A stretch of DNA of 64,000 nucleotides, taken from sequence record MN445185.1. The stretch is one strand, 5' to 3'. Positions 1-18,741 of the stretch are shown one piece after another. The position numbers and the translations under genes are program-made. The notes beneath the pieces were generated by a model. The model worked only from the letters and a program-made list of their open reading frames with translations, made no database searches and was not told the DNA's origin. The stretch is from Escherichia phage vB_EcoM_EC001. Numbering within the stretch: the first letter of the stretch is position 1; every line of letters starts with the position of its first letter.

Positions 1-984
1 TATTAAGATCTTAAAACGCGTGCGGGCGCGCGCGTGATCCTTATTAAGAGATCGTGATCGGACGGAAGACCGAGATCGGGTACCCTGTGTATTTTTTACG
101 TGGTTTCCCTATCGTGTGTTCAGACCACCACTCGATGTCCAAAAACCCATAGCTTCGGTGGTCGCCTCCCTGGTCGGTAGACTCTGACAAGTCGACCCAC
201 AACACCAACCCGTCCGGGGACGGATTTTTATTCCAACGACAAGCTCCACGAAAATCCCCGCAGAGGGACTCACTGCTGTGTGACTCACCGGCTCCTGGAC
301 GCCTACGCCTCGAGCCGGTAATTTTTTGATTACGTGAGTTTGTTGTTATATGCGAATAGCGATTGACCGCGCCAATGGTCCAATCACTTTTAAACCCTGC
401 ACGCTAGGGCTCCAAGTCCTGGGACTGATACCCAGGACGCTTTTTCGAAAATACCTACCGTGGTGTCTTCGACAAAGCGCAATCTAACACTGCGTGATTT
501 ATTATGTTCTGGAAAACTTTCGCCGTGGAACAGAACCGGTGAGCGTCGGCGGGGATTCCGACAATCACCACCCATTCAGGTACTCGGTAGATAACCGACC
601 TGCCGACGGTGCTACGTCGGGCGTAGTTCGGTTTGCGAGAGTGTCGAGAAAGTCGACTGCGCACCCATGACAAAATCCGAGTTGACCGTGGCAGCGCCAG
701 AGGACTGGGCAGCGGAGAGACGTCGTTGAACTTACCTCCGATAGTTATCGCTGATTCCGCTCTGGCGTCGGGCCAAAACTGATTCGAATTCGGCGTTGCG
801 TCGAAAAGGGGTCTGCGTGTAGAACCGCAGACTTGGGGGATAACTCCAAAGTGGGGTGATCGGATCTTGACGGCTCGGAACAGACGAGAGGGGTGGGTAC
901 TCCCGTTGTGAAACGCCAGTACCTGGCTGATTAAAATTTACAGATTCTGCGTGAGGTATGATAAACCAAACGGAGAATTAAACC

Positions 985-1560
985 ATGAACTTGTATCGCA
1001 TCGGGTTTTACCGGAACGAGGTACCAGAATCGGTTTTGGTTGTCTTAGCCGAAAACGAGGAGCAGGCCAAATCCTTCTGGCCGGTTAGCGCAGAGCGTAC
1101 AGCGGTTGCGTGCTGCTACGACGGTCCAGTTGCCGCAACGGATGTCGCTGCAGGCGTAGTCCTGAAGATGGGCCGATGGGAAGATTACTCCCATCCCGGT
1201 TTGGAGTTTGTTTCCGAACCTGCCAGACATTCCTGGGAATTTCCCTCAGGCAACACCGAGACGTATTTCGGATTTCAGGTTAAACAACCTTCGACGCTCA
1301 AACTGTACCTGGTGTACAGCGACGCCGCTACCGAAGACTACGTCGATTCCGGAATCATCGTCGGGGCAACAACCCCTGCTGCGGCATTCGCACATTGGGA
1401 CGGTGATAAACCCGGAATCGTTTCGGTCTGTGAGCTACCACTTGAAGCCGGTTTGGTTACGAACATCAAGTGTGAGCAAGGCCAGGAGCTGACTTGGATC
1501 CGCCAGGATTACCTGACGGAAACGACATTCGAGTACACACCGAGGAAGGTGACCCAATGA
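985..1560 (+). CDS. hypothetical protein (MNLY N-terminal family)
   Basis: 191-aa ORF; stop overlaps next start (ATGA). N-terminal about 35 aa resembles ORF 2283..2525 (MNLY...V.VV.A..EEQA). Confidence 0.5.
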   Translation: MNLYRIGFYRNEVPESVLVVLAENEEQAKSFWPVSAERTAVACCYDGPVAATDVAAGVVLKMGRWEDYSHPGLEFVSEPARHSWEFPSGNTETYFGFQVKQPSTLKLYLVYSDAATEDYVDSGIIVGATTPAAAFAHWDGDKPGIVSVCELPLEAGLVTNIKCEQGQELTWIRQDYLTETTFEYTPRKVTQ

Positions 1561-2048
1561 CGACGATAGCGTTCGACGGAAAAGTCTTAGCTGCTGACGG
1601 TCAGCTGACCCGCGGGTCGAATATCTGCAACCTGAACACCCAGAAGTTATTCATCTGCCCTTCTGACGAGGAATGGTGGATTACTGGTGAACGGATTGTG
1701 GCGTTCGGAGTAAGCGGTGACATCACAGGACAGTTGGCCCTGCTGGAAACGGTCCGCTTGAGACCCGGCTACAAGGGGTTAACACAAAGCTCGCAGTTAC
1801 CTGCGAAGATGGATTTTACTTTCCTGATGCTTTTGGCCTCAGGAAAAGCGATAGTCGGCGGAAAACGTGAAGACGACGTGACGTTGTGGTGGAGTGAAGC
1901 CACACCACCTCTGGCAACCGGAAGCGGTTACGAGTATGCGTTGGGTGCGATGAAGATGGGCGCGAATGCGGTTCGTGCTGTTGAGATTGCGTCCGAATGC
2001 GATATCTACACCGGTGGTGAGATTAGCACTTACGAACTACGGAGGTGA
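1557..2048 (+). CDS. HslV-like Ntn-hydrolase (proteasome-type threonine peptidase)
   Basis: Internal ATG with AGGAAGG RBS. Product starts M-TTIAFDGKVLAADGQ (Thr right after Met as in HslV TTIV..GDGQ); Lys about 30 residues in; GSGYEYALGA resembles the HslV GSGG..A motif. Confidence 0.6.
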   Translation: MTTIAFDGKVLAADGQLTRGSNICNLNTQKLFICPSDEEWWITGERIVAFGVSGDITGQLALLETVRLRPGYKGLTQSSQLPAKMDFTFLMLLASGKAIVGGKREDDVTLWWSEATPPLATGSGYEYALGAMKMGANAVRAVEIASECDIYTGGEISTYELRR

Positions 2049-2140
2049 ATCATGCGGGAGTCAGAAGCACGCAAGCTTGACCCCATCAATCGCCTGCGAT
2101 AACGGGGTAGCGCATCCGTATAAACACGTTCAAGAATTCT

Positions 2141-2216
2141 AGGAAAGTGACGCAATTGGTAGCGTACCGGTCTCCAAAACCGGCTGTTTAGAGTTCGAGT
2201 CTCTACTTTCCTGCCA
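2141..2216 (+). tRNA. tRNA-Trp (anticodon CCA), CCA end encoded
   Basis: Hand-folded 76-nt cloverleaf: acceptor aggaaag/ctttcct 7 bp, D stem acgc/gcgt, anticodon stem ccggt/accgg with loop ctCCAaa, T stem tagag/ctcta, T loop ttcgagt, discriminator g, CCA. Anticodon and T arms closely match E. coli tRNA-Trp. Confidence 0.8.
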
Positions 2217-2282
2217 CATTTAGCCAACAAGGCCATGATTCAAAGCAGAATGACACCGAATGTCTAACTGCGGAGAATAATC

Positions 2283-2525
2283 ATGAACTTGTATTTGCTA
2301 GAACGAACTGACGATATCGGGTATGATGAATTTGATTCCATAATCGTGGCGGCTCCTACGGAGCAAGCCGCGTGTGCAATTCCTCCCGACCGTGGTCATT
2401 GGATGGACTGCCGCTGGTTACCGAAAGAGCGCTGGGATGAAGGGCTTACCCTGACCGTTACTCTTATCGGTACTACGCACTATCCTGCTGGGACCGTCGT
2501 TCATGAATCGTTCAATGCTGGCTAA
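2283..2525 (+). CDS. hypothetical small protein (MNLY N-terminal family)
   Basis: 80-aa ORF starting MNLYLLERTDD; N-terminus similar to ORF 985..1560; followed by hairpin gtgggcttcggcccac. Confidence 0.4.
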   Translation: MNLYLLERTDDIGYDEFDSIIVAAPTEQAACAIPPDRGHWMDCRWLPKERWDEGLTLTVTLIGTTHYPAGTVVHESFNAG

Positions 2526-3300
2526 ACAGTGGGCTTCGGCCCACTAACCCTATTCGAGCCGTGATACTTACTCAGATTGTGCGGGTTGATGTCCCGCATG
2601 AGCCGGTAGCAGCTCAGACCTACGGTAGACCAATAAATCCGTAGCAGCCAGGTACACAAAGCACCAGGTCGCTTGTACAGGATGCTGGGTATCTGACCGG
2701 TCATAACCTCATTCGATACGAGACACGTTTATGCATGAAATACTCCAGTACATCAGGATGTTGATTTCCAACATCCGGTTCTGGGTATTCAGTCATGTTT
2801 GGTTTACAGGCGATGGGTTTTCCCGTAAGGGCCCCACTTACAGACTGGCGTCTCCACGACAACCGTCCCTAGGGGACAGGCAAGCACCGGCCCATTAAGC
2901 CGCTACGCTACGCCTGTAAATCCACAATCTGATAACCGAATGGGATTGAGTTCCCAGTGTTAGGGTGACTGTGTGTCACCGTAGGCGCGGTACCTCATAC
3001 GGCCGGTACGCCACGAATGTACGTGATAGCGGGTGGTGCTTGGAGACGCTAAGACCTGACCTTACGGACAGGCTCAGAAGAAGAAGTCCATCACCTGTAT
3101 TCAGAAATGAATTTAGGTTAATTATTGGAAGTGGCGAAATCACTTACGTGATAACTTAGTAGTATGCAACGAACAATACCAGAGTGACTTTACGAGGTTA
3201 CTGTGGTATATGTCGGTGCGCCGGGCAACGTGTTGCCGCAGATAAGCCCGAGGGAGCTGAGTGCACTAACACACGCCGGGATGCACCGGCACCTTACAAC

Positions 3301-3373
3301 GGCTTTGTAGCTCAGGTAGGTAGAGCAGCCTCTTCGAGGAAGGTCGCTGGTTCGAGACCGGTCAAAGCAAGAG
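3301..3373 (+). tRNA. tRNA-like element, possibly a degenerate tRNA or pseudogene (anticodon arm does not fold canonically)
   Basis: Canonical D arm gtagctcaggtaggtagagc and T arm gctgg-ttcgaga-ccggt, acceptor 6 of 7 bp, but only 19 nt between D and T arms so no standard anticodon stem-loop. Confidence 0.35.
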
Positions 3374-3828
3374 CAGCGAAGTTAGAGGAATTAACACCCG
3401 ACTCATAATCGGATATTTCGACGGTTCGAATCCCTGCCACTTGCTCGCCCTATTTGTGTTATCCTTATCCCGAAGGCATTCGAAATAAGACGCGTATCCA
3501 CACACGGGTCAAGGATAACACGAACCACTTCCGCGGTCACCGTGTCCATTGCCGCCTACCTGCATGGGCTGTCCTCCGACACGGTGACTTCGGGCCAAAT
3601 TACAGACCAGGGCCGTTTGGGTTTTTCTTACGCATCCGTCCAGAGCCACCTCGAGCCCTGGTTTGTTCTCCCTTTTCTGTTCCTAGTTAGCCAACTAAAT
3701 CAATTAAGCCTGGTGCGTTGCCCTGGGAACAGAAAAACTTATTCGGTTACACACCGAACCCACCCACGAGGGATATGTCGTGGACTACCAATAGAAGCAG
3801 CAATAGTAGAAGTAAGAAGGAAAGCAAC

Positions 3829-4650
3829 ATGTTTACAGTTAAACGTGTGATTGATGGTGACCGCATTATTACCGAACATGAAAAAGTTCGTATCGGTGAC
3901 CGTAAGTCTCGTGTATTCCGCGAGGCATTAAAAATGCTCGAGAACGAGCGATTCGACATTGTTGTCGATGATGAAAAGTTAGCCCTTAATCCGGGGTTAA
4001 AACGCGTTGCCCCTGATGTGCCTGATCCGAACACCATGCATTTGTCTGACTACTGCAGCTGGTCGCACAGATTATATAAAAGTCAGGTTTATGCACACAC
4101 GTATTTGCGGCAGCTTTTCCCCAACCTTATTATCCCCGATTTGGAAACGGTCGAGGTGTTTAACTGCAACGCACGCGAGTTTATTAGCTACGTGCTAGAT
4201 AATAAGGGCAATGCTATCTTGGTACTGGACACAAGTTCCAGTATACCTGATGCTGTGGCTAGCATACGTGGTGAAATCATCGGTTACGGTACTCCCCCAG
4301 AGAAATTAGGCTGGTACAAACCATCTCCTGATAGCGACATGGCGATCATTGTCTACACTCAGGAAGAACTGCAACAAGTCGAATTAGAGCCTGGCCCATC
4401 TATCGAGTTCACTGATGTCCAGGAGCAGTCGCAGTGGATTAACGGTGAGTCTGTTGTTACTGTTTTAAAAGGCGCTCGCCCTGGCGACCGGTCAGTCGAT
4501 GAACTGATTGGCGCAATGTGCATCGAAGAAGAATCTGGATACGATCCTGATAACCAGATCAGTACCGGTGCGTTGTACGAACTGTTTTATAAAGGCGACG
4601 AAGTCTACGTGGTTAACTCTCACGGTAAGACTACCGACGCCCTTCGCTGA
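3829..4650 (+). CDS. hypothetical protein
   Basis: Internal ATG of track ORF 3718..4650 with AAGGAAAG RBS; 274 aa; followed by terminator. Confidence 0.6.
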   Translation: MFTVKRVIDGDRIITEHEKVRIGDRKSRVFREALKMLENERFDIVVDDEKLALNPGLKRVAPDVPDPNTMHLSDYCSWSHRLYKSQVYAHTYLRQLFPNLIIPDLETVEVFNCNAREFISYVLDNKGNAILVLDTSSSIPDAVASIRGEIIGYGTPPEKLGWYKPSPDSDMAIIVYTQEELQQVELEPGPSIEFTDVQEQSQWINGESVVTVLKGARPGDRSVDELIGAMCIEEESGYDPDNQISTGALYELFYKGDEVYVVNSHGKTTDALR

Positions 4651-4740
4651 ATTAGCTAACGCCCAGTAGCTATGTTCCTGACGATTAGCCCTCGTCTGAC
4701 CTTGTAAGACCTTGTAGATTTACATGCCAACACCAGGGAA

Positions 4741-4784
4741 GTCCTCACTCTTCGGAGTGAGGACAACTCTTTTATTTTTTTTTG
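4741..4784 (+). terminator. intrinsic terminator (hairpin gtcctcactcttcggagtgaggac plus T-run)
   Basis: Perfect GC-rich stem with TTCG loop followed by a T-run. Confidence 0.6.
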
Positions 4785-4797
4785 TATTCCAAATATA

Positions 4798-4825
4798 CAC
4801 AGATAGATATTACCTAAGTGAGATG
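4798..4825. promoter_or_regulatory. conserved promoter-like motif copy 1 (cacAGATAGATATTACCTAAGTGAGATG)
   Basis: One of 7 dispersed copies; closest match to copy at 58724; sits about 50 nt upstream of ATG 4875. Confidence 0.45.
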
Positions 4826-4874
4826 AGAAAGCCTCATCTGAATTCTCCCAACTCGACTATAAAAGGTATGCATC

Positions 4875-5825
4875 ATGTACAGACCAAGTAATCCTAGCGC
4901 TATTGAAGGATTAAACCAGGATGGCTTCAGCCTCGCAGAAGCAACCCGCATTCGACCTTTCTTACCTCGCAGATTCTTCCCTTTCGGTTCGTTATACAGA
5001 ACGAATTTCGACGCTTGGGAAGCGATACGTGCTGTAAAAGATGCACTACAGTACAAGAACTTCGAATTCCGATTTGTTTTCAAATGGGGCAACGGCGAAT
5101 TGCTCCACCACTTCGGATTCCAACAGAACGAGTTCATTGAGTATACCTCACCTACGTACCACACCAGGTTCTTAAGTATCGAATTCGTTCGCCATTTCGG
5201 CGATGCACTCTTTACGGAACGGGCTACAGATGAAAACCACGGACGTAGGCTGATGTTAACGAACGGCGCACTGCGCATCAAGATGAATCGTTTACGGGAA
5301 GCGTATAACCAGCTTATCAATCCTGAACCGGTAATGTTTCCAACTGTAGCTGATTTGAACATTACACCGCTCCAGTTACCTGTGGATGTGGATAGACCGA
5401 TTCTGGCAATCCACGCTCTCCAGGCAGGCTATGCAAACTGGTATAAAGAGCACAGTCTCCCGAACACCAGATTGAACATCGCACCGTTTGAGTTATGCCT
5501 GTTCTTAACGTTACGCAAACAACTCGAGCCAGAAAACTTAGACTTGCGTTATCTGGCTAAAACAGATAGCGGTAGTTACTACCCAACGACCTGGATGCTA
5601 GCGGCTGTACTACCCGGCGGTGAAATTATCGGTAACCCTGTCACCGATGTTCAACAGTTACCATCACCGTTAGCACCACCGAAGGATTCAATCTATCCAT
5701 ACGCTTCGTGGTACGCGAGCAGTATTGGCGTGAGATGGTTAATGTTACACGTTCCTGAAGAGGTCTATAATTTATTCCCGCATGAGCAATGGCTCCGTGC
5801 GTATGAAAATCGGTTTGGTTGGTAG
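4875..5825 (+). CDS. hypothetical protein
   Basis: 316-aa ORF between promoter-like motif and terminator. Confidence 0.65.
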   Translation: MYRPSNPSAIEGLNQDGFSLAEATRIRPFLPRRFFPFGSLYRTNFDAWEAIRAVKDALQYKNFEFRFVFKWGNGELLHHFGFQQNEFIEYTSPTYHTRFLSIEFVRHFGDALFTERATDENHGRRLMLTNGALRIKMNRLREAYNQLINPEPVMFPTVADLNITPLQLPVDVDRPILAIHALQAGYANWYKEHSLPNTRLNIAPFELCLFLTLRKQLEPENLDLRYLAKTDSGSYYPTTWMLAAVLPGGEIIGNPVTDVQQLPSPLAPPKDSIYPYASWYASSIGVRWLMLHVPEEVYNLFPHEQWLRAYENRFGW

Positions 5826-5835
5826 TCGATGCTTT

Positions 5836-5870
5836 TGAGGGAACTTCGGTTCCCTCTTTTTTTTCTTTTT
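5836..5870 (+). terminator. intrinsic terminator (gagggaacttcggttccctc plus T-run)
   Basis: Stem-loop plus long T-run; followed by conserved TTTTTTCACG...TCTTATAG module also seen at 11855..11900. Confidence 0.55.
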
Positions 5871-5907
5871 TCACGACTGCCTCAGAATCTTATAGGAGGA
5901 AGTTACC

Positions 5908-6324
5908 ATGATTACGCAGTGCTATTACCAGACGCAAGATTTATTTAAAGCATTGGAAGAAAATAAGTTACCCACGACTTTAAGACCGCAGTGCAGTTAT
6001 TCAAGAATGCTTGCAAGTGAGGTCTTTCCGGTGCTAATGCAGTTGCCTCAATTCCAACCGTGGCTCGACTCGCTAGATGTGGTAGATGTTGTGGCTATCT
6101 ACACTGGGTCAGACACACCAACAATAAATACAAGCGAGTGTTTATCCCGTAGCGAATCGTCGGCGTTAAATGAAATGCCGCAGCTAATGCCTTCTTTATT
6201 CGATTCGATGTGCGCTGCAGTTATGCAGAAACGACTACCTTATGAGGAAGTATTCGCCATTGTGTTAGACAGCATCCACGCAATGAATTATAAACACTAT
6301 AAAACCCTCGGAACCTTACACTGA
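5908..6324 (+). CDS. hypothetical protein
   Basis: 138-aa ORF with GGAGGAAG RBS. Confidence 0.55.
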   Translation: MITQCYYQTQDLFKALEENKLPTTLRPQCSYSRMLASEVFPVLMQLPQFQPWLDSLDVVDVVAIYTGSDTPTINTSECLSRSESSALNEMPQLMPSLFDSMCAAVMQKRLPYEEVFAIVLDSIHAMNYKHYKTLGTLH

Positions 6325-6391
6325 CTTTTTTACGGCAGGCACCTATCTTGTAGGGAGTCTGTGCTGTAATAGATTCCAAAGGAGATGCTCG

Positions 6392-6781
6392 ATGAAAAAC
6401 AAACTGCGTCCGCTGGACGTGATTATGGCGCATCCGGATACCCTCAAGAAAATTAAAGTGGTCAACGAACTTGACCGTGGTCTCCTGGATACAATTCAAT
6501 GGGGTTTTACTTTCCACCCCGATGAAGAGAACAACACGCGTCAATTAGATGTCTGCGACGGTGTAGAAATTGATTGGTCTTCTAACGAAGGCTTCAACGA
6601 TGTCGTCGATTATGTCAAACAAGCCACCGTTCCACCTGTGTTTCCCGTAGCGGGTTTAGCGGAACACACAATTTCTCTCCGCCGACTGGTTAACGCTCAA
6701 CCGGAAATCGTGCGTGAAGGTGAGGCGTGGACGTCAGGTATTACCCATCATCTTAAGGATGTGCTGGGTGTTGCCGGTTAA
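6392..6781 (+). CDS. hypothetical protein
   Basis: 129-aa ORF, AAGGAGA RBS, ends at bidirectional terminator. Confidence 0.55.
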   Translation: MKNKLRPLDVIMAHPDTLKKIKVVNELDRGLLDTIQWGFTFHPDEENNTRQLDVCDGVEIDWSSNEGFNDVVDYVKQATVPPVFPVAGLAEHTISLRRLVNAQPEIVREGEAWTSGITHHLKDVLGVAG

Positions 6782-6833
6782 AAAAGAAGAAGTACCTCTA
6801 CTTGCGTAGAGGTACGGAATCTTTCTTTTTTTG
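6781..6833. terminator. bidirectional intrinsic terminator
   Basis: A-run, hairpin gtacctctac-ttgc-gtagaggtac, T-run, between convergent genes. Confidence 0.6.
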
Positions 6834-7646
6834 TTACGACTTGAAGCGTCCACCGTTCATGTAGTTCCAACGGTTTCCGATGTTGTCGTTGTGGACCAGA
6901 CAACGCTGCATTTTCGGCAAGGTGTCTTCGAACATTTGACCTGCGTCCGAGTAACCTTCAATAACGTTTCTGAAGGCACCGAACTCCATACCATTTTCCA
7001 GTTTACCAGAGTCCATGTCGAAGATCATGGTGTTGTAAATATATTGCTTAACAGCCATGACTGCCAGCTCACCTACAACCGGATAGAATGCTGGTTTGAT
7101 TTCGTTCATCTCCTGGGATAGTTCGTACTTCACCACGAGTTTGGTAGAGTAAACGAACATGCCTGGGTCTTTGATACGAATGGTATTCGGACCGAGCACT
7201 TCGACTTCTGGTGAGGCGATGCGCGGCATCGCGGATTGACTATCAACCACTTGTTGAGTGGACGCCAGTACGCCAGAGGTGGCACCGTCCAGATATGAAC
7301 CTGCTGGAGGCATGGTGTACGCCTGTCCGGCAACGGGTGTTACAGAAATGTGGGCATCCAGAATAGGACGACCGCCTGTTTTGATGTCGTCGAGATAATA
7401 CACGCGACTGAAATAATCTTGCGTGTCGTTATCCCAAGGGACACCTTGCAAATCTACTTCTTGATACTGCCCCATTCTCGAGATTTCAGGGACCAGAATC
7501 TCACGAATAACACGTTGTTGGATTTCGTTATCTACAGAGCTTGCAATTCCCAGTAACTTGAGGTTTTCTGGAACAAAAGCCGCCTGTAGAATCGGGGCAG
7601 GGATATGCTGTCTGATTTTACGCAGACAGTAGTCGATAACATTCAT
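6834..7646 (-). CDS. hypothetical protein
   Basis: Track ORF 6834..7676 begins with TTG; in-frame ATG at 7646 is preceded by AGGAG at correct spacing; 270 aa. Confidence 0.65.
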   Translation of the reverse strand: MNVIDYCLRKIRQHIPAPILQAAFVPENLKLLGIASSVDNEIQQRVIREILVPEISRMGQYQEVDLQGVPWDNDTQDYFSRVYYLDDIKTGGRPILDAHISVTPVAGQAYTMPPAGSYLDGATSGVLASTQQVVDSQSAMPRIASPEVEVLGPNTIRIKDPGMFVYSTKLVVKYELSQEMNEIKPAFYPVVGELAVMAVKQYIYNTMIFDMDSGKLENGMEFGAFRNVIEGYSDAGQMFEDTLPKMQRCLVHNDNIGNRWNYMNGGRFKS

Positions 7647-7809
7647 TCTAAGGCTCCTATGAAGCTCGTAGGACAACTCATACCATCGGGTAATGCTATC
7701 CCATTACCTGACATTAAAATACGTTTTACGACCTTTATGTGCGCACCATACTCGAAGAAATTTTGCATAGATATTATCTTCGTGAATTATCCTTAAGGAG
7801 CATTTCTCG

Positions 7810-8130
7810 ATGACGCGCATGTTCTTTAATTTCTCTCCAGGGACAAATGAACAGATTGTGCCTGCGGACATGTTACTGTGCGCGATACAAGAAGTTATTT
7901 ATCCCGGCACGCATGAGTTTCCACGTGAGTGGACACGCATTGCCGAAAGTTATTTTGGCACGGAAGCGTGGTTTGTTATTTCGGCGTTGGGCCGAAACCA
8001 TCGCTATCCCTTTCATTACAAAAATGGAGTTGTGCAAACGTGGTCAGAATATACCTCGAACCAGCTGCGGTTCATTCTAGCTTCTGGGGGCCTGTCGATG
8101 CTTCCCAGTACGCTACCGCTCTGCGGATGA
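7810..8130 (+). CDS. hypothetical protein
   Basis: 106-aa ORF with TAAGGAG RBS; stop overlaps next start. Confidence 0.5.
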   Translation: MTRMFFNFSPGTNEQIVPADMLLCAIQEVIYPGTHEFPREWTRIAESYFGTEAWFVISALGRNHRYPFHYKNGVVQTWSEYTSNQLRFILASGGLSMLPSTLPLCG

Positions 8131-8690
8131 GCCAAAAAGAACGCGAGATGTTAACTGTACAACTGTTACACACTGCGCTCGAAGATATCTTTTACTCCGT
8201 TCCGGAAATGCCTAATGCACGTATGGAACCTTTGCTGGAACCTTATACTGACGCTTTTAATCTCACGATGATGTTGGTGGCTGACCAGATCATACTTCCA
8301 CCGAAAACAGTTCCTGTGGAACGTACACACGTTTCCAGTGGCGGTTTGGGTGCCCCGGTTAATAAGACGAAAGAGACCGTAGCGATTTTACGTTCTACCG
8401 AATATCTTATCGGATTGGCATTCGAAGACTGTTACAACAGTTTCCTGGACAGTATCCATGCACTTGTGGAGAATGCTGTGAAGGCCGCCAAACACCCGTT
8501 TAATCGTTATGCGACGATTAAACTGGAACCACACATAACCCGTCGTGGGCAGGTGCAATCTCTGGAGTTACAAATTGGAGAAGACATCAGATTCATCCAC
8601 TACCGCCAATGCTTCCCAAACAAACGATATCGTCCGTCTGGTACTGATCGATCACATCGCCTCGACGGCATACGTCAGGATATTGAATGA
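8127..8690 (+). CDS. hypothetical protein
   Basis: Internal ATG (MSQKEREML) of track ORF 7929..8690; upstream part of that ORF is Cys/Trp-rich and overlaps 7810..8130, so judged non-coding. Confidence 0.5.
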   Translation: MSQKEREMLTVQLLHTALEDIFYSVPEMPNARMEPLLEPYTDAFNLTMMLVADQIILPPKTVPVERTHVSSGGLGAPVNKTKETVAILRSTEYLIGLAFEDCYNSFLDSIHALVENAVKAAKHPFNRYATIKLEPHITRRGQVQSLELQIGEDIRFIHYRQCFPNKRYRPSGTDRSHRLDGIRQDIE

Positions 8691-8703
8691 CCCCAGCGAC
8701 ATC

Positions 8704-9012
8704 ATGTTCAGCATGTATGATGTTAATACGGGGTTGAAGCATATCATTCTCTGTATGCTCGAATACATGATTCCGACATTTACAGAACACGGTACGTGGG
8801 ACGTAGAAACAGTCTCACTGATTGTTAGGTGTTATCGTCCCAGAAGTCATTCGCGGGAAATCCACACCATCGCGTCACACGTTCATCGTGCTATCTGTGA
8901 GGAAATGGGCATTCCTCCAAAAGGGTATCGGTATCATTATAATCAAGCAGACAGAATTCTCCGTTTCATTCCACGTAAGGTAACAGATGTCTATGATGAC
9001 GGTTTATACTGA
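8704..9012 (+). CDS. hypothetical protein (start uncertain)
   Basis: First ATG downstream of the stop of the preceding gene within track ORF 8545..9012; true start may be upstream non-ATG. Confidence 0.4.
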   Translation: MFSMYDVNTGLKHIILCMLEYMIPTFTEHGTWDVETVSLIVRCYRPRSHSREIHTIASHVHRAICEEMGIPPKGYRYHYNQADRILRFIPRKVTDVYDDGLY

Positions 9013-9394
9013 GTTCGTGCGATTGACTTGCCGACTCACCGCACTCGTCAAAGAGAATCTCGGCATCGATTACCAGGATGCTGCGGTAGAGCTTGACGAC
9101 TATATCGAGCAAATTGTTCGGTTGCATGTTCTGCGGAAAAAATATGGCGTTATCGATAGCATGATACGTCAGTTCTTTATGGAGTATGTTCACGATAACC
9201 CAATCATTACCCCAACCACGTCGGCAAAATACTGGGCTCTTTGTCGATTTGAGTTGTTGATACGGGACACCGATTGCATCTGGCAAGCAATCGACGAGGA
9301 CATGACTTTTTTACCACAATCCGACTTTCTCCTCTGGCATGTAGGAGACGGTGTCTGGAAAATGTTAACTACAGGGGTTACTTACAATGATTGA
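8987..9394 (+). CDS. hypothetical protein
   Basis: 135-aa ORF in tightly packed operon-like array. Confidence 0.5.
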   Translation: MSMMTVYTEFVRLTCRLTALVKENLGIDYQDAAVELDDYIEQIVRLHVLRKKYGVIDSMIRQFFMEYVHDNPIITPTTSAKYWALCRFELLIRDTDCIWQAIDEDMTFLPQSDFLLWHVGDGVWKMLTTGVTYND

Positions 9395-9896
9395 GCGATC
9401 TCATTTTTATATCCCAGGCTATCAGTTATTGGCTGGGCCGTTAACGGAGTTTTCGCCAAACGATGTGCTCCGCGAAGTGAATGACGATTTGAACTCGATA
9501 ATCAATACCGCCATGAGCTTCGTGGAACGTGGAACCATTGGTAGTGAGTTAAAGTTTATGATGAACAATACCTTTGGGTTTGTTTCTCGTACACTGAATG
9601 CGCACGGCGTTGTGTTGGAAAATGAGCAAGTAATCACTTACGGCACCGCAATTCAAAACATCGGTCGTGCGTATATGACCGCCGTATCGCAGTCTCCTTA
9701 TTGGTTTACTCACTACGGTCGTTGGGTCGGTGCACAATACACAACGCGCAATCCGGCGGATGTCGAATTCTTATTAGACTATAACGGTGGTGATAAATTC
9801 CCACAGTTTGCCAGCCAGGAAGCGTACGAGCGAATCACCCCACAACTTCTGCCTGTTATCGATTTGCTTATCGGTAATCTCGGAGGTCGTGTATGA
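9387..9896 (+). CDS. hypothetical protein
   Basis: 169-aa ORF overlapping neighbours by a few nt. Confidence 0.55.
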   Translation: MIERSHFYIPGYQLLAGPLTEFSPNDVLREVNDDLNSIINTAMSFVERGTIGSELKFMMNNTFGFVSRTLNAHGVVLENEQVITYGTAIQNIGRAYMTAVSQSPYWFTHYGRWVGAQYTTRNPADVEFLLDYNGGDKFPQFASQEAYERITPQLLPVIDLLIGNLGGRV

Positions 9897-10381
9897 GCGT
9901 TCTGTTTGATGTGGCGGATATTGCGAACCAATATAGCGCGACTCGGTTTTACGAGCATGTTCGTGAAGCGGCATTGCGTGTACTGGAAGCCAGTAACCTG
10001 GAGATCGATGAAACACAGATACGTGATTTTTATCAACGTTTTGCGTTTGCATATATCATCGGTGTGAAAACTCGTGACCCTTCGACGATGGTTGATTTGT
10101 TACAGGAAGACACGCTTGAACCTCTGGGCAATTGGGAGTTGGTGTCCGATGGTCTGTCCGTTGACCAGTTCGCTAAGGAAACGTCTGTCGATACGACGTT
10201 TCTGGCAGCACAAGGTTCGCCCGAACAACATCAAGCCGCCTTCGGCGCTGCGGTAAGTTTGCTGGCCGAAGAGTTAACAAACTTAACTGGTTTTGCTGGA
10301 CTGATAGAGTCGCTGTATCCGGGGCGATATCAAACGTATGTAGGTGATAGTTTTAACGATGTGGTGTTAATCTGCGAATGA
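9893..10381 (+). CDS. hypothetical protein
   Basis: 162-aa ORF, start overlaps previous stop (ATGA). Confidence 0.55.
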   Translation: MSVLFDVADIANQYSATRFYEHVREAALRVLEASNLEIDETQIRDFYQRFAFAYIIGVKTRDPSTMVDLLQEDTLEPLGNWELVSDGLSVDQFAKETSVDTTFLAAQGSPEQHQAAFGAAVSLLAEELTNLTGFAGLIESLYPGRYQTYVGDSFNDVVLICE

Positions 10382-10809
10382 AACTGTACATGACCATAGG
10401 CGAAGTCTTCAAATATGAGTCGTTGTTGGCACGGGCCGAGATTGCTGATACTAGCGAGATCGAGCCCGCTGTCGCTTATTTGTTTCTGGCCAGTTACGCC
10501 GAATTAACGGTTCGTTCTATTGTTAATGGGCTAGGTAAGGGTAAGAACTTTCTTACTTTTATTCCCCCAGACCCTGCGTTGATACTGGAACAGTTGAGCG
10601 GGATGTGGGGTACTGAAAAGGTGCTGCCTCTAAACTGCTACAGCATGAGCAGTGGGATTAAGGATGATGTTCGGTTCTATGAAATCCTTTCCGTGATAGA
10701 ACGTGTGTGGGGCATGGCTGGCTTGACTCCAGAAGACGGAGCAAAAAAGACAAAGGTTTCACTCCTTATGAATGAAATTGGCAACGCACTCATCTGTGTT
10801 GAATGTTAA
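10378..10809 (+). CDS. hypothetical protein
   Basis: 143-aa ORF, ATGA overlap with previous gene. Confidence 0.55.
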   Translation: MKLYMTIGEVFKYESLLARAEIADTSEIEPAVAYLFLASYAELTVRSIVNGLGKGKNFLTFIPPDPALILEQLSGMWGTEKVLPLNCYSMSSGIKDDVRFYEILSVIERVWGMAGLTPEDGAKKTKVSLLMNEIGNALICVEC

Positions 10810-10818
10810 GGAGTACGA

Positions 10819-11418
10819 ATGATCTACAAGGTGATCGCCAACCACTTGATTAATGTGGACTTGGGGGTCGTGGGGTATCTTCCGGACGGTATGCGGTTTT
10901 TGGATTTGGTGGTTGACACCGTAGTCCGCCTACCGCGTATCACCGTGGAGATACCCGTAAAAGAATTGGACCAGGACGAGATGCACGAACTTATACGTGA
11001 AACGCTGACCAGCTACACGTACGAGTTTCGTTGCATGTTACCTCGCACCGACCTTACGTTCTTGCACGACTTCTTTACGTTACTGACTGACGAGTACCGT
11101 CGGTGGAAGTTTAATGTTGCAATGGAAGCCAGCACTGAATCACATTTTAACGGGCTGACACCATTGTTAGATTTAGCGTTGATGTACAAAGAGCAAGACA
11201 GCTCACACTGGGCCACGCTCAAGCACTATACGTTGGATCTAATGGCGACCGCCGTAACGGAGGCAGTTATGGTGCATTATGTTGAGCCGGTGAAGATGTT
11301 CTTAGAGGCGCATAATGGCGCTATCCGTACGTTGGTTCTCAAGGTGGACTTCCCGAAAACACCAGTGACCAATGCTTTGGATATGAGGCTGCTTATTGAT
11401 GTTCCTGAGGAGGAATAA
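10819..11418 (+). CDS. hypothetical protein
   Basis: 199-aa ORF with TAAGGAG RBS. Confidence 0.55.
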   Translation: MIYKVIANHLINVDLGVVGYLPDGMRFLDLVVDTVVRLPRITVEIPVKELDQDEMHELIRETLTSYTYEFRCMLPRTDLTFLHDFFTLLTDEYRRWKFNVAMEASTESHFNGLTPLLDLALMYKEQDSSHWATLKHYTLDLMATAVTEAVMVHYVEPVKMFLEAHNGAIRTLVLKVDFPKTPVTNALDMRLLIDVPEEE

Positions 11419-11828
11419 TGTTCGATTTACGCACACTGGTCGCTGGGCAAAAAGTTAACATTGTTTACGACACCCCTTTGAAAGGGCAAGAGACGCGTGT
11501 AATTATTCTGGCAACCGGCGTTGGCTATGAAATGGCCAAAAGCTATATGGATGTGATGGCGGAGCAGAAGAATATCTACTCATCCATCGTCTCTCAGCCA
11601 GAAGATAACGTGAACAAATACACGTATCTGATTTTCAAAGGTGTTGACGGCAAACCCAAAGTCGCTGCCGATGCCTGGATTCGTGATGTTCAGATTATCG
11701 AAAACACGAAGGTGCGTTTCACCGTCACTCTGGATAACAAACAGGAGATTGACGACCTTAAACGCGCCCTGGCTGCCAATGGTTTCAATGATGTCGATTT
11801 TGAAATCGTTGAGAGCATTGCCGGTTAA
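11418..11828 (+). CDS. hypothetical protein
   Basis: 136-aa ORF, start overlaps previous stop; followed by terminator. Confidence 0.55.
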   Translation: MFDLRTLVAGQKVNIVYDTPLKGQETRVIILATGVGYEMAKSYMDVMAEQKNIYSSIVSQPEDNVNKYTYLIFKGVDGKPKVAADAWIRDVQIIENTKVRFTVTLDNKQEIDDLKRALAANGFNDVDFEIVESIAG

Positions 11829-11834
11829 AGTAAT

Positions 11835-11869
11835 CCCACTCTTCGGAGTGGGTTATTTTTTTTTCTTTT
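11835..11869 (+). terminator. intrinsic terminator (cccactcttcggagtggg plus T-run)
   Basis: Hairpin with TTCG loop and T-run; followed by TTTTTTCACG...TCTTATAG module. Confidence 0.55.
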
Positions 11870-11919
11870 TTCACGTATCCCGCAAGTCTTATAGCTGAGT
11901 AAAAACCAAGGGGCCAGAC

Positions 11920-14211
11920 GTGGACTACAATTCACCATTTCGTCTTAGTCAAGACGAGTATCATCGCGACATTGACGTTATCGATGCGTACTACGAACAA
12001 CTGGCGCTCTACATTCATACCGTCACCAACGGGAAATATTCTTTGGAGTTCTGTCGACAGCAGGTCGAAGAAATGTTCCAACCTGGTGGTGAGTTAGTAC
12101 ACGAATTCCCCGTGTGTAAGATGTGGGTGCGCAATCAAAAGACCGGCGATCGCGAAGAAAAATACACCACGGTAGATAAACTGTTCCGTACAGTGATTGA
12201 TAAGCAGATTATTTCTGCACCGTCGCTGACCTTTTATCTGCCTGAGCACGTCAAGCGCTCTAAGCTTGCTGAATTTACCGCAGAGAACGTGCGTAAGCGT
12301 GCGGTTGTTAAGAAAGAGATGTACGCAGCAGGTGCTGCGGGTAATGAAGTTCTGCGTATTAACAAAAAGAACGAACAGAACGCTGTTAAGACGTTGAACA
12401 ACGGGATGTCGGGTGCATTCTCATCACCGTACACGGTAATCTTTAACCAGTCTTCGCACTCTGTATTGACGTCAACCTGCCGTACGGCTACATCGTTCGG
12501 TAACGCGGGCAACGAACGTCTACTGGGCGGTAATCGTCACTACGACACGCCGTCCCGTGTTATCGACCACTTACTGTCTATTGGTACACTGACTAACTTT
12601 GCTGAGTTCAAGAAGTGTATGGAACTCTATAACCTCCACTACCCAACAGTGGACGAGGTTATGGAAGTGGTTATGTACTCTGCAGAGTTTTACTTCCGTA
12701 ACGACGAAGGGCTGGAGTTCATTCGTCACTACGTCGGTAATTGTAGCCCGCTGGTACGTGCAGCGTTTGTCTACATGGGTGACTTCTACCACCTGGCGAA
12801 ATACAACGATGAATTCATGCGTGGGTTTATCGGTGCGCTGATTGCCGAGGAGATGGAAGACGAGATCACCGATTGGGATGCTGCTGAGCGCTCTATCGAC
12901 GGTGACATGCAGATCATTATCTCGCAGTTCCGTACTGATATCGTGCCGTTAGGTAAGTCGTTCTCTGACGTTAAACTCAAAGACGAAAACACGAACAAAG
13001 CGGAACCGTGGGATAAGCAGGAAAAATACAAAGAGCTGATTCGCTCAGCTGTGTATCTGCAGAAAACCATCGGTAAGTACGCGTGCTTGATTCGTAATAT
13101 CCTGACTACCAAAAACCTGCCGATTAACATTGCCAGGATGCCTGACGTGGTTCGTCGTGTCGGTGTGGTATCTGATACCGACTCCACGATGATGACTGCA
13201 CAGTGGTGGGCACAGTGGTATACCGGTCAACATTACGGTCGTGAAGCTACGCGCGTATCGGATGCGATGATTTATATTGCAACCCAGCACTTACGTCATC
13301 TGATGGCGAGCATGTCGGCGAACATTGGCGTGGCGAAAGAGCGTTTGTTCTTGTACGCAATGAAGAACGAATTTAAGTTCGACTCCTTTGCGTTAACCAC
13401 AAAAGCAAAACACTACTTCTCCATCATCACTGGTCAGGAAGGACAATTGAAGTCCGACCCTGAGTTAGAAGTTAAAGGTGTGTCTTTACGTACGTCAAAC
13501 ATACCGCCTGTGGTCATGAAAGAGTTCAAACGCACGATTAAAGAACTCTGTGAGATTGTAGCGCGCGGCGATAAGATTAAGATTCTGCCTCTGCTGGAAA
13601 AGGTTGCTGCAATTGAGCACGTTGTGGTGGACTCTATTCGTGCTGGTAAAGCAGGCTACCTGAAAACAACCAACGTCAAAGACCGTAGTGCGTACTCTGA
13701 AGATGATGAAAAGAGCTACCACTACCACCGCATGTACAACGCCATCTTTGGACCGAAGTACGGCTACCTGGACGAACCGCCTTATGATGCCGTGAAGCTT
13801 CCGGTAAACCTGGAGAACAAAACAGCCGTTAAAGAGTGGCTGGAAAACATTAAAGACCCGATGATTAAGACCACCGCAACACGGTGGTTCGAAGAAAACA
13901 ACTATCGTACCTATCGTACTCTGATACTGCCAGAGTTCCTGGTGGAAAACTTCGGTATTCCGCCGGAGCTGATTGATGCTGCAGACACACGTCGAAGCGC
14001 ATTCTCCACAGTAGAACCTTACTATCACATTCTGGAATGTCTGGGTGTGTTCATGATGGACAAGAACAGAACTCGTCTGCTTTCGGATTACTACGGCGAA
14101 TCTGTAGACTCGGTCAAGGAAGAATTAGGTAGCGGTGAGTACGTTAAGAAATCTGAACGTGATGGAGAGGAAGAAGATGGGGAAGAAGATGGGGAAGAAG
14201 CGGAGGAGTAA
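11920..14211 (+). CDS. family-B DNA polymerase, C-terminal fragment (fingers, motifs B and C, thumb); acidic C-terminal tail
   Basis: GTG start with AAGGGG RBS. Lys/Arg-rich helix then KTLNNGMSG fits motif B (K-x3-N-x3-G); VVSDTDS fits motif C (DTDS); ends EEEDGEEDGEEAEE. No exonuclease or motif A, which lie in minus-strand ORF 43654..45438. Confidence 0.6.
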   Translation: MDYNSPFRLSQDEYHRDIDVIDAYYEQLALYIHTVTNGKYSLEFCRQQVEEMFQPGGELVHEFPVCKMWVRNQKTGDREEKYTTVDKLFRTVIDKQIISAPSLTFYLPEHVKRSKLAEFTAENVRKRAVVKKEMYAAGAAGNEVLRINKKNEQNAVKTLNNGMSGAFSSPYTVIFNQSSHSVLTSTCRTATSFGNAGNERLLGGNRHYDTPSRVIDHLLSIGTLTNFAEFKKCMELYNLHYPTVDEVMEVVMYSAEFYFRNDEGLEFIRHYVGNCSPLVRAAFVYMGDFYHLAKYNDEFMRGFIGALIAEEMEDEITDWDAAERSIDGDMQIIISQFRTDIVPLGKSFSDVKLKDENTNKAEPWDKQEKYKELIRSAVYLQKTIGKYACLIRNILTTKNLPINIARMPDVVRRVGVVSDTDSTMMTAQWWAQWYTGQHYGREATRVSDAMIYIATQHLRHLMASMSANIGVAKERLFLYAMKNEFKFDSFALTTKAKHYFSIITGQEGQLKSDPELEVKGVSLRTSNIPPVVMKEFKRTIKELCEIVARGDKIKILPLLEKVAAIEHVVVDSIRAGKAGYLKTTNVKDRSAYSEDDEKSYHYHRMYNAIFGPKYGYLDEPPYDAVKLPVNLENKTAVKEWLENIKDPMIKTTATRWFEENNYRTYRTLILPEFLVENFGIPPELIDAADTRRSAFSTVEPYYHILECLGVFMMDKNRTRLLSDYYGESVDSVKEELGSGEYVKKSERDGEEEDGEEDGEEAEE

Positions 14212-14315
14212 GAATAAGTCACGATCGTGTGTACCACAAACAATAACCTTTACGTGGGTGGACCCAGCACCGGTACCGACGGCGTTACTCAATCTTTGGT
14301 TATCTTATCTAAAGG

Positions 14316-14597
14316 ATGAACATTGTGTCGAAACGAAACAGTAAAGCAAATAACTGGGGCTGGCGACAGCTCTATTTGCACAGCCAGCCTAACCTGGTAC
14401 GGCAGCATGTGTTGTCTTTGCCAACGCAGTTTCAAACACTGGCATCGTGTGAAGGTTCAGTGTCGCCACGCGACGATCGTTGGAAAACCATGAAACCGGT
14501 TGTGTCTATTGACAAGCAATTTGACAATCCTCTCGACGGTTGGTTTGCAGCAATAGGCGGTTTAAACGTGCTGGTGGAAGGGTATGTATCGAAATAG
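14316..14597 (+). CDS. hypothetical small protein
   Basis: 93-aa ORF with AAAGGA RBS. Confidence 0.35.
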   Translation: MNIVSKRNSKANNWGWRQLYLHSQPNLVRQHVLSLPTQFQTLASCEGSVSPRDDRWKTMKPVVSIDKQFDNPLDGWFAAIGGLNVLVEGYVSK

Positions 14598-14781
14598 CGG
14601 GAAGTCCACAGAGATGATAACCGCAATCCGTCGCGACCTCGAAGAACGGGGTTGCGTGGATATTGAGTTACATCAGGCAGGCGAAACGGTGCATATCACG
14701 GCATTGGATGCCAAACGGAAACGTAGTATCACTGTGTGGGGTAAACCGTACGCAAGTGATTTCATGGAGACGATAAAATGA
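14584..14781 (+). CDS. hypothetical small protein
   Basis: 65-aa ORF; stop overlaps next start (ATGA). Confidence 0.35.
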   Translation: MYRNSGKSTEMITAIRRDLEERGCVDIELHQAGETVHITALDAKRKRSITVWGKPYASDFMETIK

Positions 14782-15449
14782 GTGATGAACAAGATTTGAA
14801 GTTACCAATGTCAATACCCGAATTGACTTATCTCACCGTCAACCGAGACGATCTCATTAATCAAGTAAGCAAACGCGTAGAGAAAGCCTTTGCTCAGAGT
14901 GGTTATAGTGAAGCGATTCGTAATTTCCGTACACCACTGGCACAATCAGTTACACAACCGCATGGTAAAGGCACTCAGTTATTAGTCGCTGTTCACCCGA
15001 CCTCACCTCTGGCAAAACAGCTGCTTACTGAAATGAACTGGCACTATAAGTGTGTTGAAGAAGTTCAGTCAGCTAATATCGAATGGGCTATGTCGCACAA
15101 GTCTCGCGAAGTGGCGTTAGTCGAATACCTGCGAAAACTACCTTGGGTTGGTGATTCTGCTGTTCTCCGCGATGGCGTAGGTGGGCCGGAAGTCTGGTCA
15201 CCTAATGCGGTGATTGATGTCGATTTCGTGGTTATCGATCCGGGTAGCAATACGCATGTCGTTCGTTTTACGGATGCGAATGTCGCTTCTGTGTGTAAAC
15301 AGTTGGGTATTGCCTACTATCAATGCGGGAAGAAAAAGAAGTCGTCGAGTGTTGAAATTGAGGTGGCGTTTACTGCGGTACAAACCCTAGATCCCGCTGC
15401 GGTTGAACATGCTTTAAACTTCCTCAAGAACCACCCAGACAGCAAATAA
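14778..15449 (+). CDS. hypothetical protein
   Basis: 223-aa ORF ending at bidirectional terminator. Confidence 0.55.
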   Translation: MSDEQDLKLPMSIPELTYLTVNRDDLINQVSKRVEKAFAQSGYSEAIRNFRTPLAQSVTQPHGKGTQLLVAVHPTSPLAKQLLTEMNWHYKCVEEVQSANIEWAMSHKSREVALVEYLRKLPWVGDSAVLRDGVGGPEVWSPNAVIDVDFVVIDPGSNTHVVRFTDANVASVCKQLGIAYYQCGKKKKSSSVEIEVAFTAVQTLDPAAVEHALNFLKNHPDSK

Positions 15450-15457
15450 AAAAAGAA

Positions 15458-15483
15458 CTACACACCGAAGTGTGTAGTTTTTG
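15458..15483. terminator. bidirectional intrinsic terminator (ctacacaccgaagtgtgtag flanked by A-run and T-run)
   Basis: Between convergent genes 14778..15449 (+) and 15532..16599 (-). Confidence 0.5.
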
Positions 15484-15531
15484 TATATAGTATGAATACT
15501 CGAAAGAGTGTTCGCGAGGAGAGAGTAAGTC

Positions 15532-16599
15532 TTATTTTTCTTCTAGCTCTGTCGTCAACGGGATAATCAAATCCCGTTGGATAAAGTTATAGAAGGATTT
15601 GGTCAAACGTGTGAGGACTTTAGAGTCCACATAACGCGCCAAATCAACCAACATCGTACGTTTATGCTTTTCCATATTCCCCTGGTTGTATTGAAGACAA
15701 AACAGTGCCCAGTACCAGTTCACCATGTTCTGGTGCCAGGTGTTCTGCAGTGTTTGACCTGGTTCTCGAAAGACAATCAGTTCCAGTGCTGTGTGGCCTT
15801 CTTCATCAGGGTGTTGGAAGAACAATGGGATGTTGTTTAAGACTTGTCCCGGTAACGGGTTGGCAGCCAGTAGTTTACTACGGATGCCTTTTGCGTGCTT
15901 CACAGCTAAAGCTTGAAGCGGTGGAACAGGAATGACACGTAATGTTTCATCCGGTTCAATCTCTTTCCCAAAGGCTATCGCACGATGTATATTTACAAAG
16001 GCGATATCCATGTAGCTCGGCAACATGCGAGAGATCACATGTCGTTGGAGATACACAGGTGTGGCAATAGGTTCGGTACCGCGACTGTAGTGCTGCTGAC
16101 CTTTGACATATTGCCAAAGCAAAGCAACCAGGTTGATTTCGATCACCGTAACACCTCGGGGCCGTCCGTCACCGAACTTCCAATTGAGGTTGGTATACTC
16201 ATGGTAGAGGTAACGGGCGGGGGTGTAGTCGCGGAACGAAAGGTCTGGATTTACTGGGCGGGCTACGAGAGAGATTACCTCATCTTGGCCCTGGATAAAC
16301 TTGCTATTAAAGATTTGACCGTACTCACCAACAGACGTCAAGCGTAAGGCGTTACCGATCTGAACAAGTTTGCGACGGCAAGCCCATTCGATGTCTTCGT
16401 ACTCTGGTTCACCGGCATAGCCGATGGCAGACAACACCTGTTGCAACAAATGGCCATTACCAGCACTGCGATTAAGCTGTTCGAAGTAGTTGCGTATACG
16501 CTGGCTGTTGTTTTTTACGTGAGCCGCTAATGTTATAGCGGAGGGGTCCGTGCTGTGACCCTTTATGGCCACTTGGTTTAACTCGGCTTGGCTGAACAT
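15532..16599 (-). CDS. hypothetical protein
   Basis: Track ORF 15532..16620 starts at GTG; in-frame ATG at 16599 (MFSQAEL) is preceded by TAAGGAG; 355 aa. Confidence 0.65.
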   Translation of the reverse strand: MFSQAELNQVAIKGHSTDPSAITLAAHVKNNSQRIRNYFEQLNRSAGNGHLLQQVLSAIGYAGEPEYEDIEWACRRKLVQIGNALRLTSVGEYGQIFNSKFIQGQDEVISLVARPVNPDLSFRDYTPARYLYHEYTNLNWKFGDGRPRGVTVIEINLVALLWQYVKGQQHYSRGTEPIATPVYLQRHVISRMLPSYMDIAFVNIHRAIAFGKEIEPDETLRVIPVPPLQALAVKHAKGIRSKLLAANPLPGQVLNNIPLFFQHPDEEGHTALELIVFREPGQTLQNTWHQNMVNWYWALFCLQYNQGNMEKHKRTMLVDLARYVDSKVLTRLTKSFYNFIQRDLIIPLTTELEEK

Positions 16600-16653
16600 G
16601 GCAGACTCCTTAGATTCCACATAGGAAGTCAGTCACAGTCAAAAATATCTCAG

Positions 16654-16667
16654 ATTGATATTATCTA
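16654..16667. promoter_or_regulatory. promoter-like palindromic motif copy 2 (GATTGATATTATCT)
   Basis: In divergent intergenic region between 15532..16599 (-) and 16806..18659 (+). Confidence 0.4.
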
Positions 16668-16747
16668 TGTGACAGTTCCTGAGAAATGTCTGGACTATGT
16701 GCCTTGTAAGTAAGCGACGGCATACTTGCATTCCATGGAATTACAGG

Positions 16748-16760
16748 CAGATATTATCTC
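16748..16760. promoter_or_regulatory. promoter-like palindromic motif copy 3 (GCAGATATTATCT)
   Basis: About 45 nt upstream of ATG 16806. Confidence 0.4.
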
Positions 16761-16805
16761 TGCGAACCGAACTATGATTGCAATCACTATTAAGGAATAT
16801 TTAAA

Positions 16806-18659: not shown

Positions 18660-18687
18660 TCGAATCGGTTACTGAGTAGTTAGGAAA

Positions 18688-18727
18688 CGGACGGGGGCTA
18701 ACGCCTCCGTCCTTCCCTCTTTTTTTG
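18688..18727 (+). terminator. intrinsic terminator (ggacgggggctaacgcctccgtcc plus T-run)
   Basis: GC-rich hairpin followed by T-run after 16806..18659. Confidence 0.55.
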
Positions 18728-18741
18728 TTGAGGTTGACAGT

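Follow-up and report, generated by a model that had tools for sequence, protein, structure and literature searches.

A putative threonine hydrolase of the proteasome-like PPH family encoded at the left end of the Escherichia phage vB_EcoM_EC001 genome

The DNA analysed here, referred to below as the window, is a stretch of 64,000 nucleotides of Escherichia phage vB_EcoM_EC001 (sequence record MN445185.1). It represents the left end of the genome of an SPN3US-like jumbo phage of the genus Seoulvirus; its first 20 kb are 98.5% identical to positions 1–20000 of Escherichia phage vB_EcoM_Lh1B and 97–98% identical to the SPFM, SPLA, and JN03 phages. The gene under study is located at positions 1557..2048 on the plus strand, starts with ATG, and encodes a PPH-type proteasome-like protein of 163 aa (plus the stop codon), a predicted N-terminal-threonine hydrolase. 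The translation of this open reading frame (ORF) opens with MTTIAF (protein sequence MTTIAFDGKVLAADGQLTRGSN... / MTTIAFDGKVLAADGQLTRGSNICNLNTQK...). Its start overlaps the stop codon of the preceding ORF (985–1560) as ATGA, and a Shine–Dalgarno-like run, GAGGAAGG, can be noted 8–15 nt 5′ of the ATG. Judged by its match to PHROG 1040 (“peptidase HslV family”, E = 1.5e-37) and by its many copies and homologues, the ORF is a genuine gene, far beyond chance. Identical or near-identical copies are present in 22 SPN3US-like records. In the SPFM and SPLA records, the identical protein already bears the label “putative peptidase of the HslV family protein”, and the RefSeq label in SPN3US is “peptidase HslV family”; both the gene annotation and the description of the family are public, so the gene is not a discovery.

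A preliminary description of this DNA, made from the sequence alone, had read the product as an HslV-like proteasome-type peptidase without a visible HslU partner. The conservation of the presumed active site was counted in an alignment of 192 diverse relatives (median length 150 aa, shortest 136 aa); all codons given below are on the plus strand. Thr2 and Thr3 directly follow Met1, as had been described. The codon of Thr2 (1560..1562), the predicted N-terminal nucleophile after Met1 removal, corresponds to Thr in 190 of the 192 relatives and to Ser in the two others. The MTT start is found in 182/192 relatives, which indicates that the protein has no propeptide. Asp14 (1596..1598) is aligned with D17 of proteasome beta5 and HslV, takes the place of the proteasome Asp/Glu17, and is Asp in 190 relatives and Glu in two. 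The lysine noticed near position 30 is Lys30 (1644..1646), aligned with K33 and present in all 192 sequences, as is Gly54 (1716..1718), which is aligned with the oxyanion-hole Gly47 of beta5. The sequence GSGYEYALGA was confirmed at residues 122–131; in its Gly122-Ser123-Gly124 loop (1920..1928), the equivalent of the Ser129 region, both glycines are found in 192/192 relatives, and the middle residue is Ser in 171 and Thr in 16. Further downstream, Asp149-Ile-Tyr-Thr152-Gly-Gly (2001..2018) is aligned with RDAYSGG of beta5 and corresponds to Asp166/Ser169/Gly170. Asp149 is conserved in 176/192 relatives (Asn in 13), residue 152 is Thr in 122 and Ser in 70, and Gly153 is present in 182/192. The GDGQ motif was misread: residues 12–16 of the protein are AADGQ, and GDGQ is the version found in E. 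coli HslV.

The relationship with the proteasome superfamily is visible only with profiles and structures, since single-sequence searches gave nothing usable. A phmmer search against the PDB yielded no usable match, the pairwise phmmer comparison with E. coli HslV was not significant (E = 1.7), and the Pfam Proteasome model (PF00227) scored the single PPH sequence at 12.9 bits, which does not reach the gathering score of 22.4. The family profile, compared with the PDB, matched beta5 with an E-value of 2.5e-13 and HslV with 6e-12. The hhalign comparison with E. coli HslV gave 97.3%, and HslV is marginally the best structural match of the PPH model. Superfamily membership is clear at the profile and fold level despite the sub-threshold Pfam score. 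The predicted proteasome/HslV-type N-terminal nucleophile (Ntn) hydrolase fold with a conserved Thr1/Lys/GSG active site is thus supported by both the model and the alignment, and this part of the preliminary description stands. The assignment to HslV in the strict sense does not: the curated HslV models were missed by more than 120 bits (TIGR03692, 16.3 vs. 157.75 bits; NF003964/PRK05456, 16.1 vs. 137 bits), and helix H2 of HslV is missing. At the profile level, the protein is as near to proteasome beta5 as to HslV. Thr1, Asp17, Lys33, Gly47, Ser129, Asp166, and Ser169 of the 20S beta subunits (PF00227) align one-to-one with PPH residues, whereas PPH, besides having no propeptide, has no alpha-type partner and is about 40 residues shorter.

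Judged by the published traits, the protein belongs to the PPH family and is not a true HslV. This family, with the representative WP_042125023.1 (KEGG OC.1434257), was described by Fuchs et al. (2021) as a proteasome-like homologue of about 140 residues occurring in Caudovirales phages and their hosts. PPH is the smallest branch of the superfamily formed by the proteasome beta subunits, HslV, and the beta-proteobacteria proteasome homologue (BPH), and it is placed in group I with HslV and BPH. Like the published members, the window protein lacks helix H2, the loss of which is a hallmark of PPH and RPC (Fuchs et al. 2021), and it is a compact subunit without a propeptide, without the C-terminal S12/H5 elements, and without the C-terminal extension that sets RPC apart from PPH. 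The triad Thr1/Asp17/Lys33 and the oxyanion Gly47 are kept, and the carriers are likewise tailed phages of Proteobacteria and prophages. The window copy differs in its length, which exceeds the typical size by about 15–20 residues; the additional residues are located in an added hairpin (~34–46) and at ~100–110, and they are a lineage-specific addition, common to other jumbo-phage copies. BPH (PDB 5ovs/5ovu) keeps helices H1–H4 and a long acidic pore loop and assembles as heptameric double rings, whereas PPH has no H2.

The family is very large and was recovered mainly from phages and metagenomes. An exhaustive profile search revealed 14,883 clusters (50% identity) at E ≤ 0.001, 10,277 at E ≤ 1e-10, and 974 at E ≤ 1e-30; the best matches are mostly 136–160 residues long and are aligned from residue 1. 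A tblastn search found homologues in 286 phage records. They include SPN3US-like, Erwinia, and EL-like jumbo phages, phages with genomes of 41–50 kb (Guernseyvirinae, e.g., Kagunavirus Sciku, and Jedunavirus), Aeromonas and Vibrio phages, and Rhodobacter phage RcXuper, and their hosts are Salmonella, Erwinia, Klebsiella, Pseudomonas, Escherichia, Aeromonas, Vibrio, Rhizobium, and others. A search of the SPLA5c genome with the family hidden Markov model found no second PPH copy. In the SPFM5, 7, 8, 9, 12, 14, 15, and 20 records, PPH and the two flanking genes of 191 and 80 aa are fragmentary, with high identity over 10–35% of the length; frameshifts caused by assembly errors are a possible explanation for these fragments, rather than real pseudogenes.

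A structural difference from HslV lies in the middle of the protein. Only three helices (residues 56–66, 125–133, and 138–148) are present in the AlphaFold2 model, in which the last strand is at 157–160 and no helix is found between residues 66 and 125. Residues 67–86 (1755..1814, plus strand), modelled with lower confidence (pLDDT 73–76), form a loop in place of HslV helix H2 and the pore segment, and in the hhalign alignment PPH has a gap opposite HslV residues of about 70–95. In HslV, the pocket for the HslU tail is composed of Phe54 and Phe57 (H1), Ala79 and Lys80 (H2), and Gln114, and the enzyme can be deregulated by mutations in the adjacent pore loop. The contacts corresponding to Ala79 and Lys80 are lost from PPH together with H2, and Phe54 and Phe57 align with variable hydrophobic residues. 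Since H2 and the pore segment are missing, canonical docking of a host or phage HslU on PPH would be unlikely, and the earlier suggestion that the protein might work with the host HslU is weakened.

These differences weigh on the possibility that PPH is a surrogate HslV, the rings of which would dock the host HslU hexamer and redirect the host unfoldase. Such a role would be in line with the homology to HslV, with the marginal lead of HslV among the structural matches, with the (M)TT start that would expose an N-terminal Thr without a propeptide, as in E. coli HslV, and with the presence of HslU in the phage hosts (E. coli was checked). However, the scores are far from those of the curated HslV models, the pairwise similarity to the host HslV is insignificant, no hslU gene adjoins PPH, and neither the pore motif nor the full HslU-tail pocket is present. 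We therefore regard a surrogate HslV as improbable.

A helix that takes part in ring-type assemblies has been lost from PPH, which is compatible with a further alternative, namely that the protein is not a general protease. It could be a sequence-specific ligase or transpeptidase, comparable to connectase, or an amidase with a small molecule or a conjugate as its substrate. The superfamily does include connectase, a monomeric ligase, and for the new homologues, Fuchs et al. anticipate functions and quaternary structures without precedent. An activity of this kind is considered unlikely.

As to the unfoldase, a Pfam search (E ≤ 0.01) found no AAA+ family in the 62 ORFs of the window, in agreement with the preliminary description. 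The genome of SPLA5c encodes a PPH 100% identical to that of the window. In this whole genome, phmmer gave no match with E. coli HslU, RAY gp116, or the HslU-like protein of SPLA3 as the query. Apart from chance matches, a Walker-A scan picked up only an SbcC-like protein and thymidylate kinase, and the genome annotation contains no unfoldase. The statement that an HslU partner is missing nevertheless has to be limited, because other close relatives encode an HslU-like ATPase far outside the window, with no sign of coupling to PPH.

The gene of this AAA+ ATPase (580–586 aa) is located ~105 kb from the left end of related jumbo phage genomes. The full-length version was found in SPLA3, phage 1252, and MET_P1_082_240, the PPH proteins of which are 97–99% identical to that of the window, and in SPAsTU, pEa_SNUABM_29, and the Machina-, ChrisDB-, Huxley-, Caitlin-, and Parshik-like phages. 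In the loci compared, it occupies positions 3001–4761 in both SPLA3 (L017) and SPAsTU (L016) and 5001–6743 in pEa_SNUABM_4 (L015). The motifs are intact (Walker A GPTGTGKT, Walker B FLDEFDK, and GARRL; Pfam AAA and AAA_2), and an enlarged I-domain can be noted. Erwinia phage RAY gp116 (“HslVU family”) was considered as a PPH paralogue with a transferable localisation and was rejected, because it is a 569-aa homologue of HslU (E = 3e-64 to E. coli HslU).

As many PPH-carrying relatives have an intact HslU homologue, PPH might provide the peptidase of a split phage HslUV-like system, with the ATPase encoded ~105 kb away. The comparison of genomes argues against it. The two genes are never adjacent, and among the nearest isolates the ATPase has been deleted from SPLA5c, survives in Lh1B as a remnant of 75 aa (L018, 3001–3228), and is represented in JN03 and SPLA1a only by a 68-aa N-terminal match. 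PPH occurs without a detected ATPase in SPN3US-like isolates, Asesino, phiEaH2, and Stratton, and the ATPase occurs without a detected PPH in Wellington, Kwan, Phobos, CR5, EarlPhillipIV, Derbicus, and the RAY group. In the PPH neighbourhoods examined in the small-genome phages Jedunavirus VLCpiM12a and Kagunavirus Sciku, no HslU-like gene was found. The ATPase gene is gained or lost independently of PPH, and the distribution of the two genes shows no coupling. Moreover, the phage ATPase ends ~25 residues before the C-terminal tail with which E. coli HslU docks to HslV, and the RAY copy, gp116, localises to the phage nucleus. The conserved neighbours of the ATPase are small (148–243 aa) paralogues of Peptidase_S80/phiKZ-type prohead proteases (PHROG 7478; Pfam PF20034, up to 36 bits), located at 4842–5324 in L017, 2504–2989 and 4977–5423 in L016, 6736–7942 in L015, and 21778–22263 in L007. 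These neighbours had been considered as hidden proteasome homologues, which was rejected in favour of the S80-like assignment; a pairing of the AAA+ protein with an S80 peptidase in phages is a possibility. A split HslUV-like system that includes PPH is very unlikely.

In the window, PPH is preceded by a 191-aa ORF (985..1560, plus strand) and followed directly by tRNA-Trp (CCA) at 2141..2216 on the plus strand (ARAGORN; Rfam 63.6 bits), the flanking tRNA gene named in the preliminary description, and then by the gene of an 80-aa protein (2283..2525, plus strand; PHROG 5444, E = 5.9e-36). As an orphan of SPN3US-like phages, the 191-aa protein matched no Pfam or PHROG family, and only close homologues were recovered. 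The 80-aa protein has homologues in Asesino (gp4), Machina, pSal-SNUABM-04 (ORF 004), and pEa_SNUABM_8 (pEaSNUABM8_00005). In jumbo phages of both Erwinia and Salmonella, it is conserved in the vicinity of PPH; its C-terminus is an invariant SFNAG motif. Both flanking proteins start with MNLY, as had been noted, and they had been taken for paralogues. The paralogy is weakly supported, as the 80-aa family profile matches the 191-aa protein only over residues 1–35 (hhalign probability 74%, E = 2.7e-5) and pairwise comparisons of the two proteins are borderline or null. The common N-terminal module can be written as MNLY...VVxAxxEExA.

The order PPH, tRNA-Trp, 80-aa gene is the only conserved arrangement around PPH, and it is limited to the jumbo clade (e.g., Erwinia phage pEa_SNUABM_29). 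In Seoulvirus, Machinavirus, and related phages, PPH lies at the extreme left end of the genome beside tRNA genes. In Jedunavirus, it is part of an oppositely oriented, moron-like insert of three genes among the tail genes; in Kagunavirus Sciku, it closes an early cluster of small genes before the lysis cassette; and in RcXuper, it adjoins polynucleotide kinase, RNA ligase, and NAD-salvage genes. A conserved neighbour as a partner of PPH was rejected, the flanking genes being unrelated among Jedunavirus, Kagunavirus, RcXuper, and pEa_SNUABM_29. The variable context, with no partner gene conserved, points to an accessory character of PPH.

Several other features of the window were recorded. A second tRNA-like element is located at 3301–3370 on the plus strand (Rfam tRNA, 33.6 bits with a gathering score of 29, E = 2e-4); it is not called by ARAGORN, has a G-A mismatch atop the acceptor stem and an irregular anticodon arm, and may be a decaying tRNA. 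The related phage pEa_SNUABM_29 has a tRNA-Tyr ~1.2 kb after its tRNA-Trp. There is no convincing ORF at positions 1–985 and 2525–3775, and 11 terminator-like hairpins were observed in positions 1–4000 compared with 4.0 ± 2.1 in shuffled sequences. A 914-aa ORF (34795–37539, plus strand), annotated in SPLA5c as the terminase large subunit, contains an intein-like insert with a Hint domain (aa 151–202) and a LAGLIDADG homing-endonuclease domain (aa 361–411, E = 3.2e-10). Two window genes are called DNA polymerase in SPLA5c: the product of 12073–14211 (plus strand) is a “divergent family B DNA polymerase” (PF20286, E = 5e-271), and that of 43654–45438 (minus strand) has no Pfam match.

Taken together, we favour with moderate confidence the interpretation that PPH is an accessory threonine peptidase that would act independently of HslU, probably as a homo-oligomer, in a dispensable host-takeover or counter-defence role. 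Most likely, the protein would be an active threonine hydrolase functioning without HslU docking. Methionine aminopeptidase cleaves Met before Thr, a second residue that it accepts (E. coli HslV is an example), and proteasome-family catalysis relies on a free N-terminal Thr with Lys33 and Asp17. In PPH, the host methionine aminopeptidase would strip Met1, and the free amino group and hydroxyl of Thr2 would then serve as the nucleophile. Asp14 and Lys30 would complete the triad, with Gly54 at the position of the oxyanion-hole glycine, and Ser123, Asp149, and Thr152 may support the active site. The enzyme would cleave peptide bonds of unfolded or specific proteins or peptides in the infected cell, presumably with no HslU-type unfoldase docked.

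Several points weigh against this interpretation. Proteolysis by PPH is assumed from the conservation of its active site alone, and a search of the literature on PPH, phage HslV-like proteins, and SPN3US found no experimental work and no paper on PPH other than the bioinformatic description of 2021. Proteasome-type subunits are normally active only as assembled rings. HslV is a dodecamer of two hexameric rings; for PPH, only a linker-joined trimer was modelled, with a pTM of 0.56 and mean pLDDT values of 40–73 in five strongly disagreeing models. In addition, the host (Salmonella/E. coli) does encode HslU. Nevertheless, all four rival explanations rank lower than an HslU-independent accessory peptidase. 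The weakest of them, a non-catalytic decoy or poison subunit that would co-assemble with HslV or titrate HslU and so disturb the host HslVU, draws only on the HslV homology and the presumed need of the phage to reshape host proteostasis, and it is extremely improbable.

A bolder version of the favoured interpretation can be put forward only tentatively. PPH may be an ATPase-independent viral threonine protease, or a specific ligase/transpeptidase, that forms an H2-less assembly unlike the rings of HslV, BPH, and the 20S proteasome and destroys or processes particular host or defence proteins. If this is true, PPH would be the first viral protein of the proteasome superfamily with a defined function. 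The independent gain and loss of the tail-less HslU-like ATPase in the sister phages would then point to a system of its own, in which S80-type peptidases are perhaps the partners.

The analysis adds negative constraints to the existing annotation: PPH is not to be treated as HslV, and it lacks some of the site on which HslU canonically docks. The HslU-like ATPase of sister phages, which has no docking tail and has been lost without loss of PPH, is a further constraint. Throughout this very large family, the proteasome-type active site is strictly conserved. With SPN3US, a genetically tractable model is at hand in which a viral homologue of the proteasome could for the first time be assigned a function.
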